Shown here: piece after piece, positions 6,826-23,603 of the stretch
Numbering within the stretch: the stretch's first letter is position 1
Layout of the letters: every line of letters starts with the position of its first letter
Origin: a phage
Strand: one strand, 5' to 3'
DNA length: 64,000 bases
Sequence record: PZ452609.1
The notes under the pieces: generated by a model
Told to the model about the DNA's origin: nothing
Databases searched by the model: none
What the model saw: the letters and a program-made list of their open reading frames with translations, nothing else
Position numbers and translations under genes: made by a program

Positions 6826-7275
6826 ATGTGCTATACAGGCGACCCAGCCAATAACCCTCTTGATAGAGTAAGAATCCTCTGCACAGACACCAATAATGAT
6901 GAAATTCTTATTGAGCAGTCTGTGCTAGAGTGGTTCTATCTAGAATCTGGAAAGGATGAAAAGAAAGCAGCCATCAAAGCTCTTAAATATTTACTCTTTC
7001 AAGTAGCCAAGATGGGAGATGAGAAGGTTGGTGGTGTTTATTTACGTAACTCTTCCAGATTCAAATCTCTGAAAGCTGTTTATGACGACCTTGTTAAAAG
7101 CTCTGTTTCAGGACTACCCTATGCAGGTGGTATTAATCAGTGCGACATTGATATGCGTCGTCAAAATCCTTGCTCTGTCAAGAAATACACAGAATATGGT
7201 GATGCTGCCAGATACGAAGGCAGAGATTACTGCAACCGTGTTAATGGCGTATTTATTATCGAGCGAGATGAATAA
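6826..7275 (+). CDS. head-tail joining protein (putative)
   Basis: position between capsid and sheath genes. Confidence 0.35.
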   Translation: MCYTGDPANNPLDRVRILCTDTNNDEILIEQSVLEWFYLESGKDEKKAAIKALKYLLFQVAKMGDEKVGGVYLRNSSRFKSLKAVYDDLVKSSVSGLPYAGGINQCDIDMRRQNPCSVKKYTEYGDAARYEGRDYCNRVNGVFIIERDE

Positions 7276-7757
7276 TGGTTAAAAGGGTTATTCACCCCGC
7301 TAGAGCAAAATTAGTCGGGGCTATGAAGAACTTGCAAACGGCTAATGCTCAAGTTGGGTATTTTCAAGAACAAGGTCAACATAGCTCTGGTTTTTCTTAT
7401 CCTGCTTTAATGTATTTACAAGAAGTTATTGGGGTTCCTTCAGCTTCTGGTAAAGTATATCGTAGGTTGTTTGAAATCACTATGATGCTAAACAGACAGA
7501 CCTTGTTAGAGCAGACTAAGAAGAATCTCTATAAGCAACTTAGCAGTCTCAACACAGACCCTTCAAATACTTTAGAAGCATTTGCAAAGAATGCTCAGAA
7601 GGCAATTAAAAGGGGTTTTGGTAATTCTGCTATCCTCCCTCCTAACGCACCTTCCACAGTCAAGAAAAAAGGCTTTAACGCACCTCTTGTTGAGACAGGT
7701 GACTTAAGAGATAACCTTGCTTATAAAATTTCTACTAAGAAGGGTATTAAGAAATGA
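7275..7757 (+). CDS. head-tail joining protein (putative)
   Basis: position; overlapping start/stop. Confidence 0.35.
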   Translation: MVKRVIHPARAKLVGAMKNLQTANAQVGYFQEQGQHSSGFSYPALMYLQEVIGVPSASGKVYRRLFEITMMLNRQTLLEQTKKNLYKQLSSLNTDPSNTLEAFAKNAQKAIKRGFGNSAILPPNAPSTVKKKGFNAPLVETGDLRDNLAYKISTKKGIKK

Positions 7758-8155
7758 GACTCTTAAACAGACACAGCTTTGTAGTAAAGCGTAAAGTCTC
7801 TGAAGACGGTTATTACAATGATGATGGTGATTGGGTAGCTTCACAAGATATTGTAGAGGTTAACTGCAAAGGTAATATCCAGCCATATATCAAAGGTTCT
7901 GTAAAGAACGGTACACAGATTGCTTTACCGGAAGGTATCAGGCTTACCGATACAAGAATCCTGTATACTACATATAAACTTAGAACTTCAGATGATGTAG
8001 AGTGGAATGAGTCTGACATTGTTATGATTGATGGTCATGAGTATGAAGTATTTATGACTATGGATTGGTCACAGCAATTAGCCCATACGTCCCATTATGA
8101 ATATATCATTATTAGAAGGGATAAAATGAATGCAGTTAGAAACAGCAGAACTTGA
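7754..8155 (+). CDS. head-tail joining protein (putative)
   Basis: position; overlapping start/stop. Confidence 0.35.
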   Translation: MRLLNRHSFVVKRKVSEDGYYNDDGDWVASQDIVEVNCKGNIQPYIKGSVKNGTQIALPEGIRLTDTRILYTTYKLRTSDDVEWNESDIVMIDGHEYEVFMTMDWSQQLAHTSHYEYIIIRRDKMNAVRNSRT

Positions 8156-8729
8156 AAAAGGTCTAGTTAGAACCTTAGTGGATGTTATTGGTCACAGACT
8201 AGCTCGTGATAAAAATAATAGACCAAATGTAATTAGAGCTTACCCTTCTGATAACTCAAATGACAAAGGTTTAAAACCTGACCAGCCATTTATTACCGTA
8301 TATTGTCAAGATGCTGCAACACCTTATGGTTGGGTTCTTGATAAGTTTGTTGAGGATGATGTAGTTTGCTACAGAATTGCTTTTCAGATTCCAGTATTAA
8401 TTACGGTAAATGGTAAAGGTGCTCACAGTATTATGCTTGAGCTTAAACAACGATTAGAGATGAGTTCAGTCAGAGATTTAATTCTTGAAGAGACAGGAGC
8501 TACAGTTTTAGACACTGGAGCTATCCCGAATGACTATACCTATCTCAATACAGATTTCGAAAATTCTGCGCCTCTTGTTGTAACTCTTGTAAAAAATTCA
8601 GTCCTGAAAGATGAACGTGGGGGAATTATTGAACGTGTCATTGTTGATGGTGAATTAGTTTACGAAGAAGGACAAGAGCCACCAGAATATACTATCCATC
8701 TAGATGTAGACTCCAAAGGGGTAAAATAA
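8130..8729 (+). CDS. tail completion/neck protein (putative)
   Basis: position immediately upstream of sheath. Confidence 0.35.
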   Translation: MQLETAELEKGLVRTLVDVIGHRLARDKNNRPNVIRAYPSDNSNDKGLKPDQPFITVYCQDAATPYGWVLDKFVEDDVVCYRIAFQIPVLITVNGKGAHSIMLELKQRLEMSSVRDLILEETGATVLDTGAIPNDYTYLNTDFENSAPLVVTLVKNSVLKDERGGIIERVIVDGELVYEEGQEPPEYTIHLDVDSKGVK

Positions 8730-10082
8730 ATGTGGAATCCAATTGTTAATGTAGATATTACATTGAACACCGCAGGAACTACAAGAGAAGGTTTTGGGCT
8801 ACCACTATTTTTAGCTTCAACAGATAACTTTGAAGAAAGAGTCCGTGGTTACACTTCCTTAACTGAAGTTGCTGAAGATTTCGATGAAAACTCTGCTGCA
8901 TATAAGGCTGCTAAACAACTTTGGAGTCAGACTCCTAAAGTAACTCAGCTTTATATTGGTAGACGTGCTATGCAGTACACTGTATCAATTCCTGATGAGG
9001 TTACTGAGAGCACCGACTATTCTTTAACTGTAGCTGTGAGCGGTGGAGTTTCTCAGCCATTCCAGTACACTTCACAGTCAGAAGATACTGCTGAGAAGGT
9101 GCTACAGCAGCTTAAAACTCAGATTGAAGCAGAGCCTTCTGTAAAAGACCTTGTTACCGTCAATGTAACTGGTGCTGGTGGTTCAGCAACAATGGTAATC
9201 ACCAAAGCGGGTGACAATGACTTCGTGAAGGTTACCACTACAGCACAAACAGTGTCAATTGCAAGTACAACTGCTGACACAGCATCGACTGCTCTGGCAG
9301 CTATTGAGGCTTATTCAACTGACTGGTATTTCATTGCAGCAGAAGATAGAACTCAACAGTTTGTCTTAGCAATGGCTTCTGAGATTCAAGCTCGTAAGAA
9401 GATTTTCTTTACAGCTAACTCTGATGTAACAGCCCTACAAGGTACAGAATTAGCCAGTGCAAATGATGTTCCAGCACAGCTTGCTAAGAGTCAGTACACT
9501 CGTACCGTTTGCTTGTGGCATCACACAGCAGCAGAAGACTATCCAGAAATGGCATACATTGCTTATGGCGCTCCGTATGATGCAGGTTCAATTGCTTGGG
9601 GTAACGTACAGTTAACTGGCGTAGCTGCTTCTCTACAGCCATCTAATCAGAGACCTCTGACAAGTATTCAGAAGTCAGCTTTAGATGCACGTCACTGTAA
9701 CTTTATTGACCTTGATGGTGGTGTTCCAGTGGTTCGTAGAGGGATTACTTCTGGTGGGGAATGGATTGATATCATCCGTGGTGTTGACTGGTTAGAATCA
9801 GACCTGAAAACTTCTCTGAGAGACTTGCTAATTAACCAGAAGGGTGGTAAGATTACTTATGATGATACTGGTATTACCCGTATTCGTCAAGTCATTGAAA
9901 CCTCTCTGCAAAGAGCAGTCAACAGAAACTTCCTGTCATCTTACACAGTTAATGTTCCTAAAGCCTCTCAAGTTGCTTTGGCAGACAAGAAAGCTCGTAT
10001 CCTGAAAGACGTTACCTTCTCAGGTATCTTAGCAGGGGCTATCTTGGATGTTGACTTGAAAGGTACAGTGGCTTACGAATAA
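8730..10082 (+). CDS. tail sheath protein (putative)
   Basis: 450 aa ORF followed by ~150 aa tube-size ORF, then chaperone pair and tape measure: canonical myovirus order. Confidence 0.6.
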   Translation: MWNPIVNVDITLNTAGTTREGFGLPLFLASTDNFEERVRGYTSLTEVAEDFDENSAAYKAAKQLWSQTPKVTQLYIGRRAMQYTVSIPDEVTESTDYSLTVAVSGGVSQPFQYTSQSEDTAEKVLQQLKTQIEAEPSVKDLVTVNVTGAGGSATMVITKAGDNDFVKVTTTAQTVSIASTTADTASTALAAIEAYSTDWYFIAAEDRTQQFVLAMASEIQARKKIFFTANSDVTALQGTELASANDVPAQLAKSQYTRTVCLWHHTAAEDYPEMAYIAYGAPYDAGSIAWGNVQLTGVAASLQPSNQRPLTSIQKSALDARHCNFIDLDGGVPVVRRGITSGGEWIDIIRGVDWLESDLKTSLRDLLINQKGGKITYDDTGITRIRQVIETSLQRAVNRNFLSSYTVNVPKASQVALADKKARILKDVTFSGILAGAILDVDLKGTVAYE

Positions 10083-18698: not shown

Positions 18699-18798
18699 NN
18701 NNNNNNNNNNNNNNNNNNNNNNNNNNNNNNNNNNNNNNNNNNNNNNNNNNNNNNNNNNNNNNNNNNNNNNNNNNNNNNNNNNNNNNNNNNNNNNNNNN
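18699..18798. other. 100-nt run of N (assembly gap or masked sequence)
   Basis: exactly 100 n characters. Confidence 0.95.
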
Positions 18799-19153: not shown

Positions 19154-20329
19154 ATGGCAGTAGGTGAAATTCAAATTAGTGCCTTGCCACAAGCGGCCTT
19201 ACCAGTTGATTTGAGTGATATCTTCCACCTTAAGCAAGGTGTTGAGGATAAAAGATGTACGCTTGAGCAGTTGTTAGCACCTCACGCATCTTTGAGGAAT
19301 AACCCTCATGGTGTAACTAAATCACAAGTAGGTCTTGATAATGTTATTAACTCTCTTCAATTAGTTGCAGCTAATAACTTGTCAGATATTGTAAGTGTTG
19401 CTGAGGCAAGAGCAAATCTACAAATTATGTCGTCAGAGGAAGTGAATAACTTAATTCAGCAACATATTGACGACAAAAGTAACCCACACAATACAACGAA
19501 AGCACAGGTTGGTTTAAGTAATGTTCAGAACTGGACAACATCTAATCTGTACAATGAAGATGCTGATAAGTATGCTACCGCGAAAGCAGTTAATAATTTA
19601 TACAAAGCTATCCAAGCGTCATATCCAGTAGGGACTATTCATCTATCTGTTAACTCTGCTAACCCATCCACTTACTTGCTTTGTGGAGGTACTTGGGAGT
19701 TAGTTTCTAAAGGTAGAGCACTAGTTGGTTATGATACAGATTCTAGACCTGTTGGTTCAACGTTTGGTTCTCAGACTGTAGCATTAACAAATAATAATTT
19801 ACCAGCACATACTCACTCTATCTATCTAACAGGTGGTGGTCATACACACTCTGCAAGTGTATCTATCTCTAGTTTTGATTATGGTTCAAAAAGTACATCA
19901 ACTTTTGATTACGGTACAAAAACGACTAATAGTGCTGGTGCTCACACTCACACGTTTAGTGGCACAACAAGTAATGCTGGTAACCACAACCATAGAGTCC
20001 CTATGAGGGGTAATGATAGGGGTGGCACAAACGCTATTACTGCATCTGCTGATGCTGGTGTTGGTAATGCTATGTATACTGATTTAGCTGGTGCTCACAC
20101 TCATAGCTTCTCAGGTACAACTGCATCATCTGGTGCTCATAGCCATACTGTCGCAATTGGTGCTCACAGCCACACTGTTAATATTGGTTCGCACAGTCAT
20201 ACAGGCACTGTTACTGTTTCTAGCTCTGAGCATACACACTCAGGGACATCTGGTTCTGTTGGTGGTGGTCAAGCTTTCAGTGTTGAGCAGCCATCTTTTG
20301 TAGTATATGTGTGGCAGAGAACAGCTTAA
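19154..20329 (+). CDS. tail fibre protein with tail-fibre repeats and His-box (HxH) C-terminal tip
   Basis: two NPHxxTKxQVGLxNVxN repeats; C-terminal GAHTHTFSG / GAHSHTV HxH repeats as in T-even distal fibre tips. Confidence 0.7.
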   Translation: MAVGEIQISALPQAALPVDLSDIFHLKQGVEDKRCTLEQLLAPHASLRNNPHGVTKSQVGLDNVINSLQLVAANNLSDIVSVAEARANLQIMSSEEVNNLIQQHIDDKSNPHNTTKAQVGLSNVQNWTTSNLYNEDADKYATAKAVNNLYKAIQASYPVGTIHLSVNSANPSTYLLCGGTWELVSKGRALVGYDTDSRPVGSTFGSQTVALTNNNLPAHTHSIYLTGGGHTHSASVSISSFDYGSKSTSTFDYGTKTTNSAGAHTHTFSGTTSNAGNHNHRVPMRGNDRGGTNAITASADAGVGNAMYTDLAGAHTHSFSGTTASSGAHSHTVAIGAHSHTVNIGSHSHTGTVTVSSSEHTHSGTSGSVGGGQAFSVEQPSFVVYVWQRTA

Positions 20330-20338
20330 TTTCTTTAC

Positions 20339-20361
20339 AGGGGCTTTATAGCCCCTTTTAA
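20339..20361 (+). terminator. stem-loop ggggct-ttat-agcccc followed by TTTT
   Basis: hairpin plus T-run between the two fibre genes; member of a recurring GGGGCTT..AAGCCCC element family. Confidence 0.5.
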
Positions 20362-20375
20362 GAGGAAAACTTATA

Positions 20376-22922
20376 ATGGCAGATTACAAATTGAGTCAAT
20401 TAAACTCAATCGACACAATTCGTTCAGAAGACCTATTGCACATCAGAGTTAAGAAAAGACCTGAAATGTTGGGTGACGAAGACCGTAGAATGACCTATCA
20501 AGACTTCTTAGCTTCCTTCAAACTAGAAAGGTTTGTTCAGATTGCTGGGAGTAATATGACTGGGGATTTAGGTATTGTCAAGTTACTTTACGGTGGTAAG
20601 GCAGTGTTTGACCCAACAGGTTCTTCTGAGATTACTATTGGGGATGTTTTAAAGACTTTTAAACTTAACGCAAGTGGTCTTAAACTAACTATTGCAGATG
20701 CTTCAAGGTCAGCAACTGTTTATCATACTCTGAATAAGCCAAGTCCTAATGAGCTTGGTATGAGAACTAATGAAGAGAATGACGCAAGATATGCAAGACT
20801 TGCTATCACAAACACATTCTCTGGGACTCAGAACATTCAAGGTGATGCTAACTTACTTCGCCTTAGAAACCAAAATGCAAATAATGCACAATATATTGAA
20901 GGTGTAAACCTAGATGGTTCGGCTAGATGGTGGGTTGGTATTGGTAGTAATGGCTCTGACGAAGTAAAGCTGTACAATAGCAAATACAACTCAGTCTTGA
21001 CTGTTGCAAGTAATATCTCTGTTAATAAGTCTTTAGCAATCACTGGTCAAGTTCAGCCTTCTGATTTCTCTAACTTAGATGCTAGATACTTTACTCAGAC
21101 GGCAGCTAATCAGAGATTTGCACAGTTAGCTGGCAATAATACTTTTACAGGTGCTAACACTTTCACTAACCTTGTTGCTAAGAAGAATGCTAATGCCATT
21201 ACTTTGCAGAATACTGATGCAAATACAGCACTTTACATTCTCGGTAAGAAGTCTGATGGAACAAATAAATGGTATGTTGGTACAGATTCTGACGAGACAC
21301 GTCTAAACATTTATAACTACCTTACAGGTTCACAGGTTTCACTAGGTACTACTATTGGTATCAATAAAACTGTGCAAATCACTGGACAAGTCCAACCTTC
21401 AGATTGGGCTAACATTGACTCTAGATATATTCCGGTAGCAACATTAAGTACGATTGCAAGAACTAATGCAAGGAATACTTTTAATGGTGTACAGACAGTT
21501 GTTACGGATAATGAAGGTCTGATTGTTAAAAACTCTACTCAGAATAGACCATTATATATTCGTGGTGTGGACACTACTAATGTATCAAGATGGTGGATTG
21601 GTGTTGGTGGTGCTGACACGAATGATGTTACCCTAAATAACAGTTATTCTGGAACCCAATTGGTTCTCGGGAATACAACATCATACATTAACAAAACATT
21701 GACTATTGCTGGACAAGTTCAACCTTCAGATTTCTCTAACTTAGATGCTAGATACTTTACGCAAAGTGCTAGTGATAGTAGATACCTAAGAATCAGAAGC
21801 ACTAGCTTCAATGTGGGAAACACTGATAAGTGGGCTAAAATTGCCACTGTTGTGATGCCACAATCAGCATCCACTGCTGTTATTGAGGTATTTGGTGGGT
21901 CAGGTTTTAATATTAATACACCAAACCAAGCAGGTAAATGTGAAATTGTTCTGCGAACTTCAAATAACAATCCAAAGGGCTTAAATGTTGTTGCTTGGAG
22001 AACATCAGAGAACACCATTGTCAGGGATATTGGTTATGTGAATACTTCTGGAGACACCTATGATATTTACTATCTTGCTGGTACGTATCAAAACAGCACA
22101 ACGACAAGGGTTCAGTCTTCTAGTAATGCAAGTGTACAGTTGTTTGAAGTCCCACAGACATTTGATGATGCTCCACAAGGTATTGTGAAGGGTACAATTG
22201 CAAAATACTACACAAGTTTGCAAAAACCAACCCCTTCAGATATTGGTGCATACACTAAAGCAGAGACTGACCAGAAGATTGCAGAAGCAATTAGTGACTC
22301 TACAGACCTGAATAAAATCTATCCAGTAGGTATTGTGACGTGGTTTAACAGTAATGTCAACCCAAACACAGCACTTCCTGGGTTAACTTGGACGTACCTG
22401 AATAATGGTGTTGGTAGAACTATTAGAATTGCAGCAGCAAACGGTTCAGATGTTGCTACAACTGGTGGTTCAGACTCTGTAACGTTGTCTGTTGGTAACT
22501 TACCTTCACACACGCACAGCTTCTCTGCTACTACTTCATCATTTGACTATGGTACTAAGACTTCTAGCACAACTGGTAACCACAACCACAACAGAGGTAC
22601 TATGGAGATTACTGGTTCATTTGGTTACTTCAGAAGTGACGCTAGTAGCTTCTACACAGCAAGTGGTGCATTCTACCTCGGTAGTCAGGCAGGTTCTAAA
22701 GGGTATACTGGTAACAACTTTACTAATGGTATCCCTGTCAACTTCAACGCATCAAGAAACTGGTCTGGTGTAACGAATACAACAGGTAACCACAGCCACA
22801 CTGTTGATATTGGTGCTCACAGCCACACAGTTAGCGGTAACACAGGTGGTACTGGTTCTGGTTCTGCATTTAGTGTTACTAACCAGTTCTATAAGTTAAT
22901 GGCTTGGGTAAGAACTGCTTAA
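20376..22922 (+). CDS. long tail fibre protein (receptor-binding), internal repeats and His-box tip
   Basis: 848 aa; repeated ITGQVQPSDFSNLDARYFTQ segments; C-terminal LPSHTHSFS / GAHSHTV motifs and SAFSV tail shared with the upstream fibre. Confidence 0.75.
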   Translation: MADYKLSQLNSIDTIRSEDLLHIRVKKRPEMLGDEDRRMTYQDFLASFKLERFVQIAGSNMTGDLGIVKLLYGGKAVFDPTGSSEITIGDVLKTFKLNASGLKLTIADASRSATVYHTLNKPSPNELGMRTNEENDARYARLAITNTFSGTQNIQGDANLLRLRNQNANNAQYIEGVNLDGSARWWVGIGSNGSDEVKLYNSKYNSVLTVASNISVNKSLAITGQVQPSDFSNLDARYFTQTAANQRFAQLAGNNTFTGANTFTNLVAKKNANAITLQNTDANTALYILGKKSDGTNKWYVGTDSDETRLNIYNYLTGSQVSLGTTIGINKTVQITGQVQPSDWANIDSRYIPVATLSTIARTNARNTFNGVQTVVTDNEGLIVKNSTQNRPLYIRGVDTTNVSRWWIGVGGADTNDVTLNNSYSGTQLVLGNTTSYINKTLTIAGQVQPSDFSNLDARYFTQSASDSRYLRIRSTSFNVGNTDKWAKIATVVMPQSASTAVIEVFGGSGFNINTPNQAGKCEIVLRTSNNNPKGLNVVAWRTSENTIVRDIGYVNTSGDTYDIYYLAGTYQNSTTTRVQSSSNASVQLFEVPQTFDDAPQGIVKGTIAKYYTSLQKPTPSDIGAYTKAETDQKIAEAISDSTDLNKIYPVGIVTWFNSNVNPNTALPGLTWTYLNNGVGRTIRIAAANGSDVATTGGSDSVTLSVGNLPSHTHSFSATTSSFDYGTKTSSTTGNHNHNRGTMEITGSFGYFRSDASSFYTASGAFYLGSQAGSKGYTGNNFTNGIPVNFNASRNWSGVTNTTGNHSHTVDIGAHSHTVSGNTGGTGSGSAFSVTNQFYKLMAWVRTA

Positions 22923-22929
22923 TCCCTTG

Positions 22930-22958
22930 TTGACTGATTGTTAAGATGGTGTTAATAT
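22930..22958 (+). promoter_or_regulatory. sigma70-like promoter TTGACT-N17-TAATAT flanked by 9-bp inverted repeat
   Basis: -35 ttgact 22930-35, -10 taatat 22953-58; inverted repeat aagatggtg / caccatctt (22943-51, 22975-83) brackets the -10. Confidence 0.45.
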
Positions 22959-23001
22959 TCTTTATGGGTATTCTCACCATCTTGGCTGATGAGGTGATTA
23001 A

Positions 23002-23196
23002 ATGCCTACAATCCTAGCAATTCTTCTAAAAAATCTAGGTAGCTTCTTCTGGAAACTCATTTTATCCCTTCTAAGTGAATACATGATTGAGAAAGTGTTC
23101 TTTAAGCTTGCAAGATACCTTGCGAGTAAAACAGATACACCTATTGATGATGAGTTCGTAGATAACTTAGAAAAAGCTTTTAAGGGGGAGAAATAA
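23002..23196 (+). CDS. small hydrophobic/amphipathic protein (possible holin-like or membrane protein)
   Basis: 64 aa, hydrophobic N-terminal half, RBS gaggtga. Confidence 0.35.
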   Translation: MPTILAILLKNLGSFFWKLILSLLSEYMIEKVFFKLARYLASKTDTPIDDEFVDNLEKAFKGEK

Positions 23197-23568
23197 ATGA
23201 AGTGGCTAGAGGAAGCTTTTAAAAATAATATTGGTGCAATTGTAGTTGGTATTTTTAGTGTTATTGGGATGTATACCACTATGCAAGTCTCAAGTGGTAA
23301 GCAGGAAGTGTCTGTCACAACAAAGTTACAGCAGCTAGATAATTATTCCAAAAGTAACTATTCAGCTATTCGTGATTTACAGTCTGACATGAGATTGATT
23401 CAGCTAGGGATGGAGAACCAGAAAGTTCAGTTAGAGAATGTTAAGGGTGAAAACGCAAAACTTACCAAAACCCTTGATAAATTCTCTGACAGTGTGAACA
23501 ATCTGGCTCAATCAGTATCAGCCTTGCAAGCTATTACTGAAAAGAACACAAAGAATACTGAAAAATAA
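23197..23568 (+). CDS. membrane-anchored coiled-coil protein
   Basis: single predicted TM (IGAIVVGIFSVIGMYTTMQV) followed by coiled coil; 123 aa. Confidence 0.4.
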   Translation: MKWLEEAFKNNIGAIVVGIFSVIGMYTTMQVSSGKQEVSVTTKLQQLDNYSKSNYSAIRDLQSDMRLIQLGMENQKVQLENVKGENAKLTKTLDKFSDSVNNLAQSVSALQAITEKNTKNTEK

Positions 23569-23573
23569 AATTT

Positions 23574-23603
23574 AAGGCTCCCGTAAAAAGGAGCCTTTTT
23601 TGT
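23574..23603. terminator. convergent-operon terminator (aggctcc-cgtaaaaa-ggagcct + T-run)
   Basis: perfect 7-bp stem, T-run on + strand; lies between convergent + and - gene blocks. Confidence 0.6.

Follow-up and report, generated by a model that had tools for sequence, protein, structure and literature searches.

Felix O1-type short and long tail fibers with predicted T4 gp37-like tips and modular evolution in phage record PZ452609.1

Two adjacent genes in a 64,000-nucleotide (nt) stretch of phage record PZ452609.1 (here called the window; fiber region, positions 19154 to 22922) very probably encode short and long tail fibers (STF and LTF) of the Felix O1 type, with tips of the T4 gp37 type and a modular evolution. 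This reading is based on sequence comparison: both fiber C termini are homologous to the receptor-binding tip of T4 gp37, and explicit phylogenetic incongruence shows cassette exchange to be the source of the variability of the long fiber shaft. The DNA of the fiber region is 99.5 to 99.7% identical to that of Escherichia coli O157 typing phages 1, 8, 11, 12, and 15 and phage wV8, and the phage belongs to Felixounavirus (Felix O1-like myoviruses), the genus of the typing phages and wV8. For comparison, 16 related loci (L001 to L016) were taken from IMG/VR with the conserved 100-amino-acid (aa) protein encoded upstream of the fibers as the query, giving 17 genomes in all.

HxH motifs and a common C-terminal end

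The short fiber gene (391 aa; 19154 to 20329, on the plus strand like all fiber features given below) encodes nine His-x-His (HxH) motifs, at aa 219, 230, 264, 278, 315, 329, 338, 347, and 360, compared with a mean of 1.4 after shuffling of its residues. The long fiber gene (848 aa; 20376 to 22922) encodes four, at aa 712, 736, 806, and 815, compared with a shuffled mean of 0.11. Neither count was reached in any of 5,000 shuffles, and the remaining long open reading frames (ORFs) of the window have at most two such motifs each. A preliminary description of this DNA had stated that both fibers end in HxH repeats, and these counts bear it out. The short fiber matches phrog_2097 (tail fiber; E = 1e-138) and is the homologue of wV8 gene 82 and the equivalent of the STF of Bas63, and the long fiber matches phrog_4277 (E = 0) and is the homologue of wV8 gene 83 and the equivalent of the Bas63 LTF.

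The two fibers also resemble each other directly. Their last ~250 aa align with 29% identity (E = 1e-16), and both end in the pattern AFSV...W.RTA (QAFSVEQPSFVVYVWQRTA vs SAFSVTNQFYKLMAWVRTA), so that the common ...SAFSV...WVRTA tail named in the preliminary description is confirmed. Of the two strings that it listed as common to both fibers, GAHSHTV is found twice in the short fiber and once in the long fiber, but HTHSFSGTT is restricted to the short fiber, the long fiber reading HTHSFSATT. Among the 17 genomes, every short fiber has nine HxH levels, and the long fibers have four, six, or seven.

Alignment with the tip of T4 gp37

The short fiber aligns over aa 145 to 362 with T4 gp37 residues 785 to 1026 (PDB 2XGF; E = 1.8e-26). 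The long fiber aligns with the same chain at an E value of 4e-6, and a profile of its distal half, made from 60 homologues, does so at an E value of 1.7e-53 over chain residues 22 to 242. The T4 gp37 tip has three parts: a collar, a needle of six strands whose HxH sites coordinate seven Fe ions, and a head (PMC6957217; PMC12609058). At the head, the chain reverses its direction, and function requires residues of the head as well as H929/H931 next to it (PMC6957217; PMC12609058).

All seven HxH motifs of the T4 tip (883, 915, 929, 966, 980, 989, and 998) align to motifs of these fibers. The short fiber keeps all seven and has one extra ascending and one extra descending unit, and the long fiber keeps the equivalents of 883, 915, 980, and 989 but lacks the two motifs nearest the head as well as the final one. 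In each fiber, GxHxH units lie on an ascending and a descending segment around a His-free insert, with four units, 34 aa, and five units in the short fiber and two units, 67 aa, and two units in the long fiber. Because of the homology to T4 gp37, the HxH repeats would form the needle shaft of the tip and not its extreme end, the head insert would be the receptor-contacting end, and the ...W.RTA tail would come back near the collar. The preliminary description had likened the fiber ends to the metal-coordinating HxH tips of T-even fibers. The likeness to the T4 gp37 tip holds for both fibers, but the HxH runs correspond to the needle and not to the tip. By homology, receptor binding would fall to the hypervariable, His-free insert that separates the ascending from the descending HxH run.

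In the short fiber, the collar (aa ~145 to 218; 19586 to 19807) is of the gp10/gp37-collar type and matches Pfam Gp10_C (PF21939; 67.6 bits, E = 2.8e-18). Its AlphaFold2 (AF2) model matches the C-terminal domain of T4 gp10 (2fkk) with a Foldseek probability of 0.99 and 34% identity, and its amino acid sequence is 82 to 92% conserved among relatives. The ascending needle strand (19808 to 19993) holds the first four HxH motifs and FDYG[ST]K repeats and aligns to T4 gp37 H883/885, H915/917, and H929/931, with one extra rung inserted. The head (aa 281 to 314, without His; 19994 to 20095) aligns to T4 gp37 head residues 932 to 965 and is the predicted receptor-contacting tip. It is 22 to 42% identical in most relatives versus ~90% for the N terminus, and five head types are found in the 17 genomes. 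The descending strand (20096 to 20239) holds the other five motifs, in part as 27-nt tandem units encoding GAHSHTVxI (Tandem Repeats Finder: period 27, 2.4 copies, 20131 to 20196). The C-terminal tail (20240 to 20326; ...GGGQAFSVEQPSFVVYVWQRTA) aligns to the C terminus of T4 gp37 (...KNIAFNYIVRLA).

The same elements follow one another in the long fiber. The collar (aa ~640 to 711; 22293 to 22508) scores 25 bits for Gp10_C, below the cutoff of 27, and aligns to the short fiber collar. It is 98 to 100% identical at the amino acid level in L002 and L004 to L012 and 65 to 75% identical in L013 to L016. The ascending strand (22509 to 22589) has the HxH motifs at aa 712 and 736 and one FDYGTK unit, and the descending strand (22791 to 22835) has those at aa 806 and 815. 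Between them lies a large head without HxH (aa 739 to 805; 22590 to 22790), which is ~100% identical in O157-infecting relatives and 8 to 42% identical in most relatives. The C-terminal tail (...GSGSAFSVTNQFYKLMAWVRTA; 22836 to 22919) is well conserved, with 58 to 98% over aa 801 to 840 and 88 to 100% over the last eight residues (aa 841 to 848) in all full-length relatives. In L003, the long fiber gene is present as two ORFs (7528 to 9898; 541 and 259 aa), through either a frameshift or an assembly error.

The short fiber N-terminal part (19154 to 19570) has a motif of its own, NPHxxTKxQVGLxNV, which occurs twice (aa ~50 to 64 and ~110 to 124) within a segment, aa 45 to 130, that is covered by PHROG matches to many unrelated tail fiber families. 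In the Bas63 STF, the probable counterparts of this pair are the motifs termed "helix and turn."

Shaft domains and linkers of the long fiber

The shaft of the long fiber contains three tandem units of ~110 aa: R1 (aa 129 to 241; 20760 to 21098), R2 (aa 242 to 354; 21099 to 21437), and R3 (aa 355 to 463; 21438 to 21764). Each is one of three matches to Pfam gp37_trimer (PF20744; E = 1.8e-75 overall), and each ends in a linker, ITGQVQPSDFSNLDARYFTQ (21039 to 21098), ITGQVQPSDWANIDSRYIPV (21378 to 21437), and IAGQVQPSDFSNLDARYFTQ (21705 to 21764), respectively. The units start 339 and 327 nt apart, and outside the linkers they are 42 to 44% identical in amino acid sequence. A search of the PDB with the whole long fiber sequence matched neither the T4 gp34 rod (5NXH) nor a deposited fiber chain of Bas63.

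The preliminary description had reported near-identical duplications of ~60 nt in this gene. Such copies do exist: the first and third linkers (both encoding I[TA]GQVQPSDFSNLDARYFTQ) are identical at 53 of 60 positions, with an exact run of 32 nt. However, there is a third, more diverged copy at the second linker (42 to 45 of 60 positions identical), and the copies are the conserved ends of old tandem domains and not recent 60-nt duplications. The linkers, of the form GQVxPxDxxNxDxRY, number exactly three and occupy the same positions in 17 of 17 genomes. Within a genome, linkers 1 and 3 share 35 to 56 of 60 nt, and orthologous linkers of different phages share on average 45 to 50 of 60. As similarity within a genome is about the same as that between phages, purifying selection on a structural element, the helix-and-turn motif, fits better than recent duplication.

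We nevertheless considered whether the copies arose by recent intragenic duplication or gene conversion and act as substrates for unequal crossing-over that alters fiber length. The exact run shared by the R1 and R3 linkers speaks for this, as does the absence of significant similarity in the remaining DNA of the units, and in L007 these two linkers are identical at 56 of 60 positions. Furthermore, the best match between cores at different positions (L013 R1 versus L003 R3) reaches 67.5%, compared with the usual ~43%, which hints that out-of-register exchange may occur, but rarely. Against it, the 17 genomes align without any change in repeat number, and no unequal crossover of this kind was seen among them; the Bas63 study likewise reports no variable repeat numbers (PMC12609058). 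The low identity of the units also marks them as old. Together with the pattern of linker similarity, these observations make a recent duplication unlikely.

A predicted metal-coordinating needle

Under the proposed model, each fiber would be a homotrimer whose C-terminal ~210 to 250 residues form, by homology, a receptor-binding tip of the T4 gp37 type. The chain would run from the collar along an ascending GxHxH beta-strand to a small His-free head and back to the collar along a descending GxHxH strand. The six strands of the trimer would form the needle, with each HxH level (two His from each of three chains) holding one axial metal ion, Fe2+ in T4. Up to nine metal sites are predicted for the short fiber and four for the long fiber, whose needle would be shorter and whose head, at 67 aa, is larger. 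Rungs of metal would stiffen the needle and keep it in register, and the head would contact the receptor, which in relatives is the lipopolysaccharide (LPS) core. In the long fiber, three tandem beta-helix-type shaft domains with "GQVQPSDxxNxDxRY" linkers between them would be followed by a beta-sandwich knob.

The motifs are strongly conserved. In alignments of 59 to 60 homologues, the His and Gly residues of the GxHxH units either never vary or are conserved to 90% or more, and in the C-terminal tail of the short fiber, W248, R250, and A252 are invariant or nearly so among 59 homologues.

Several observations weigh against the model. Three of the seven T4 HxH levels are missing from the long fiber, among them the two next to the head, and the junction between its needle and head may therefore not be like that of T4. 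A tblastn search of the window with T4 gp38 gave no credible match (E = 0.95), and in the absence of a gp38-type chaperone from the window, folding may differ from that in T4; dependence on gp38 is a trait of T4 and not of the fold. The structure models, all of them monomer AF2 predictions, are mediocre. For the short fiber tip, the mean predicted local distance difference test (pLDDT) score is 74, with beta-strands along both HxH runs and a head below 50, and for the distal half of the long fiber the mean is 63, with a poor tip, so that this model is informative for the knob only. Foldseek did not retrieve 2XGF from the PDB with the monomer model of the short fiber tip; beyond the gp10-type collar, it returned only long beta-hairpins of unrelated pore-forming toxins.

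Alternatively, the HxH pattern could serve structure alone as a repeat of beta-strands, or its metal could be one other than Fe, with no part in receptor recognition in either case, the likeness to T4 then being one of fold only. In T4 gp12, for instance, Zn is bound at an HxH site. Homologous tips differ in how many HxH levels they have, as the long fibers with four, six, or seven levels illustrate, which suggests that individual rungs are dispensable. However, the His pairs that are invariant or nearly so across these diverse homologues align residue for residue with the Fe ligands of T4, and alanine substitution of H929/H931 in T4 is lethal (PMC6957217), which counts against a purely structural role. 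We consider this explanation improbable and prefer metal-bearing needles that present a receptor-contacting head.

Exchange of modules among relatives

Sliding identity along both fiber genes is mosaic, with conserved N termini, collars, and linkers set against divergent heads and R1, R2, and R3 cores. The preliminary description had proposed aligning the tips of relatives as a check for module exchange, and the comparison supports such exchange through this mosaic pattern, a triplet test, and the reassortment of cassettes. In the triplet of the window, L004, and L005, informative sites place the window with L004 over L005 from gene 81 through the short fiber (328:25) and again in the long fiber tip (133:1). 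In the R1 core, the window sides instead with L005 over L004 (103:5). Heterogeneity among these regions is strong (chi-square, 467; P ~ 1e-91). The R1 core of the window is 98% identical to those of L005 and L009, which are otherwise ~85% identical to it, and 43 to 47% identical to those of its closest relatives, L003 and L004, and the transitions in identity are sharp at the conserved linkers. L002 differs from the window almost exclusively in the R2 core. Clustering at 80% identity gives 6 cassette types for R1, 12 for R2, and 12 for R3 in the 17 genomes, and these are freely combined.

Heads have been exchanged as well. L005 and L009 carry the same 31-aa head type (SVGGRYGGDSIGGKQRVQVSGTNQISSVAGD) on both the short (STF, ~7050 to 7250) and long (LTF, ~9500 to 9900) fibers. 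The two heads are 81 to 94% identical in aa sequence and ~80% identical in a stretch of ~200 nt, and presumably both fibers of these phages bind the same receptor. Over 58 aa, 91% identity to the T4 gp37 head is seen for the long fiber head of phage vB_EcoM-VpaE1 (L008, a 100% match; 9277 to 9876) and for that of L010, so that a Felixounavirus and a Tequatrovirus share a head domain. The 67-aa head of the window, with its flanking HxH motifs, is 71% (P0149) to ~80% (P0150) identical to tail fibers of E. coli prophages, and T-even distal fibers of the JS09/slur03 type match the long fiber head at 38 to 44%.

The knob of the long fiber is distributed among relatives in a similarly uneven way. 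This all-beta accessory domain (aa ~473 to 628; 21792 to 22259) follows the shaft repeats, precedes the collar, and is modeled in blocks with pLDDT scores of 73 to 91. Its confident part (aa ~471 to 610) matches the accessory beta-sandwich of the tailspike-like WceF (6tgf; Foldseek E = 3e-6, probability 1.0) and structurally also resembles the accessory domain of Acinetobacter phage tailspikes. The knob is ~70% identical in L004, L009, and L012 and 25 to 50% identical in L013, is absent or replaced (0 to 15%) in L005 to L008, L010, L011, and L014 to L016, and shares 44% identity with tail fibers of E. coli prophages. It may be a second glycan-binding site.

A separate candidate, exchange between the two fibers of this genome, was rejected as a significant process. 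An exact match of 20 nt and a stretch of ~40 nt with ~86% identity are all that the two genes have in common, which makes them poor substrates for mutual exchange here.

The conserved collar, HxH, C-terminal, and linker sequences flank the divergent heads and shaft cores, and homologous recombination between co-infecting phages swaps these cassettes in register, which would reassort receptor specificity. The shared C-terminal modules and internal repeats had been described as recombination substrates. Module exchange is strongly supported; what the comparison documents is exchange in register between different genomes, with a unit count that is constant at three in all 17. A rival view, that heads and shaft cores diverge in patches through locally accelerated point mutation, under diversifying selection or relaxed constraint, is very improbable. 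The variable segments do coincide with surface-exposed domains, and the explanations offered in the Bas63 study are tolerance of mutations, variable recognition of hosts, or escape from defense, without recombination (PMC12609058). However, the phylogenetic incongruence of the R1 core with its sharp borders at linkers, the differing combinations of cassette types, and the heads held in common, at 71 to 91% identity, with T4 and prophages from unrelated lineages all stand against it.

Going beyond recombination in register, we tentatively raise a broader idea, which we regard as possible and yet on balance doubtful. The shaft domains would then be not inert spacers but combinatorial cassettes, reassorted at the linkers under diversifying selection because they contact glycans of the host surface or are targets of a defense system, and the heads would move freely between the short and long fibers of one phage, among virulent Felixounaviruses, and to and from T-even phages and temperate E. 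coli prophages.

Genome context

The genes are arranged in the order baseplate J-like wedge protein, baseplate protein, 100-aa protein, STF, and LTF, so that the two fiber genes are adjacent to each other and downstream of the wedge genes. In wV8, genes 82 and 83 are both annotated "tail fiber protein," and the annotation of gene 82 adds "similar to putative tail fiber protein GP37 [Felix 01]." The fiber N termini, which would be the baseplate-binding regions of such an STF/LTF pair, are 90 to 100% conserved in L001 to L012 and 75 to 92% conserved in L013 to L016.

Upstream of the fibers, the gene encoding the baseplate protein (the homologue of wV8 gene 80) contains a run of 100 N (18699 to 18798) that, by comparison with wV8, replaces 220 real bases. 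As a result, the baseplate ORF looks truncated and frameshifted (244 versus 284 aa), and window coordinates downstream of it lag the real genome by 120 nt.

Directly 3' of the long fiber gene, positions 22923 to 23100 are 95 to 100% identical in 16 of 16 relatives, even where the neighboring genes are ~70 to 85% identical. The downstream sequence encodes two small proteins (ORFs 23002 to 23196 and 23197 to 23568; phrog_402 and phrog_4038), one of which seems to start with a hydrophobic segment and to contain a region resembling a coiled coil. A search for a function of these two ORFs (23002 to 23568) found nothing. They are followed by a terminator-like hairpin (23574 to 23597) and, on the opposite strand, by genes for thymidylate synthase and dihydrofolate reductase. 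A scan for promoter and terminator consensus sequences gave nothing above shuffled sequence and did not recover the terminator that is annotated between the fiber genes in wV8.

Comparison with known systems

Fiber tips decide which bacteria a phage attacks, and phages of the Felix O1 type serve in the typing and biocontrol of Salmonella and E. coli O157. For the engineering of host range, two boundaries follow from the architecture proposed here: specificity would lie in a head of 34 to 67 aa bracketed by conserved HxH sequence, and shaft domains would be exchangeable at conserved linkers. Essentially all of the system has already been described in work on Bas63, VpaE1, and T4, and current understanding is unchanged; the present analysis confirms the cryo-electron microscopy (cryo-EM) of Bas63 and earlier sequence work for the lineage of wV8 and the O157 typing phages. 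New details for this lineage are the nine plus four HxH levels, the prophage-type large head, the tailspike-like knob, and the evidence of incongruence.

With the T4 gp37 tip, the fibers share the order of elements (collar, ascending HxH, head, descending HxH, and hydrophobic C-terminal tail), and the 34-aa head of the short fiber equals that of T4 in length. They differ in the number of HxH levels, seven in T4 versus nine in the short and four in the long fiber, and in a collar of the Gp10_C type (PF21939). Furthermore, T4 has a jointed fiber made of four proteins, whereas each fiber here is one gene product attached directly to the baseplate. Tetart, Desplats, and Krisch are said to have proposed in 1998 (J Mol Biol) that the GxHxH "His-box" motifs of T-even gp37 and gp38, which are conserved and flank variable adhesin segments, are sites of host specificity recombination; the same logic extends here to Felixounavirus tips and additionally to the linkers of shaft domains.

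Both fiber C termini of VpaE1 (gp74 and gp75) were found to be homologous to the T4 gp37 adhesin by Simoliunas et al. (Viruses, 2015; PMC4690856), and the same study describes conserved N termini and a variable middle and C terminus for Felix O1-like fibers. The VpaE1 long fiber has a T4-type 34-aa head, six HxH motifs, and no knob of the wV8 type, compared with the 67-aa head and four motifs in the window. E. coli prophage side tail fibers (PF07484 Collar with PF03335/PF03406 repeats, e.g., P0149 to P0167) have a similar knob (44%) and large head (71 to 80%). Unlike the fibers here, they combine a T4 gp37-like collar with other N-terminal shafts in temperate backgrounds.

The closest known system is that of Bas63 (Escherichia phage JohannRWettstein), a Felixounavirus whose STF (gp26) and LTF (gp27) were resolved by cryo-EM (Sci Adv, 2025; PMC12609058). 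Both of its fibers have a collar, an HxH needle, and a head, with seven di-His motifs in the STF and six in the LTF, and in the LTF five beta-helix domains are counted, the repeats being parted by conserved helix-and-turn motifs (PMC12609058). That study notes high variability in the tips and, "unexpectedly," in the beta-helix repeats, the number of repeats being constant (PMC12609058). Genus, gene order, two-fiber architecture, and tip type are the same in the two phages, and the adjacent fiber genes with conserved N termini that characterize the gp26/gp27 pair are present here too. In contrast, the di-His counts here are nine and four, the sequence of the shaft gives three PF20744 units instead of five domains seen by cryo-EM, and the long fiber has a larger, 67-aa head and a beta-sandwich knob, the latter missing from many relatives. 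Lastly, the Bas63 study accounts for shaft variability without recombination, whereas the comparison of genomes here shows cassette recombination.

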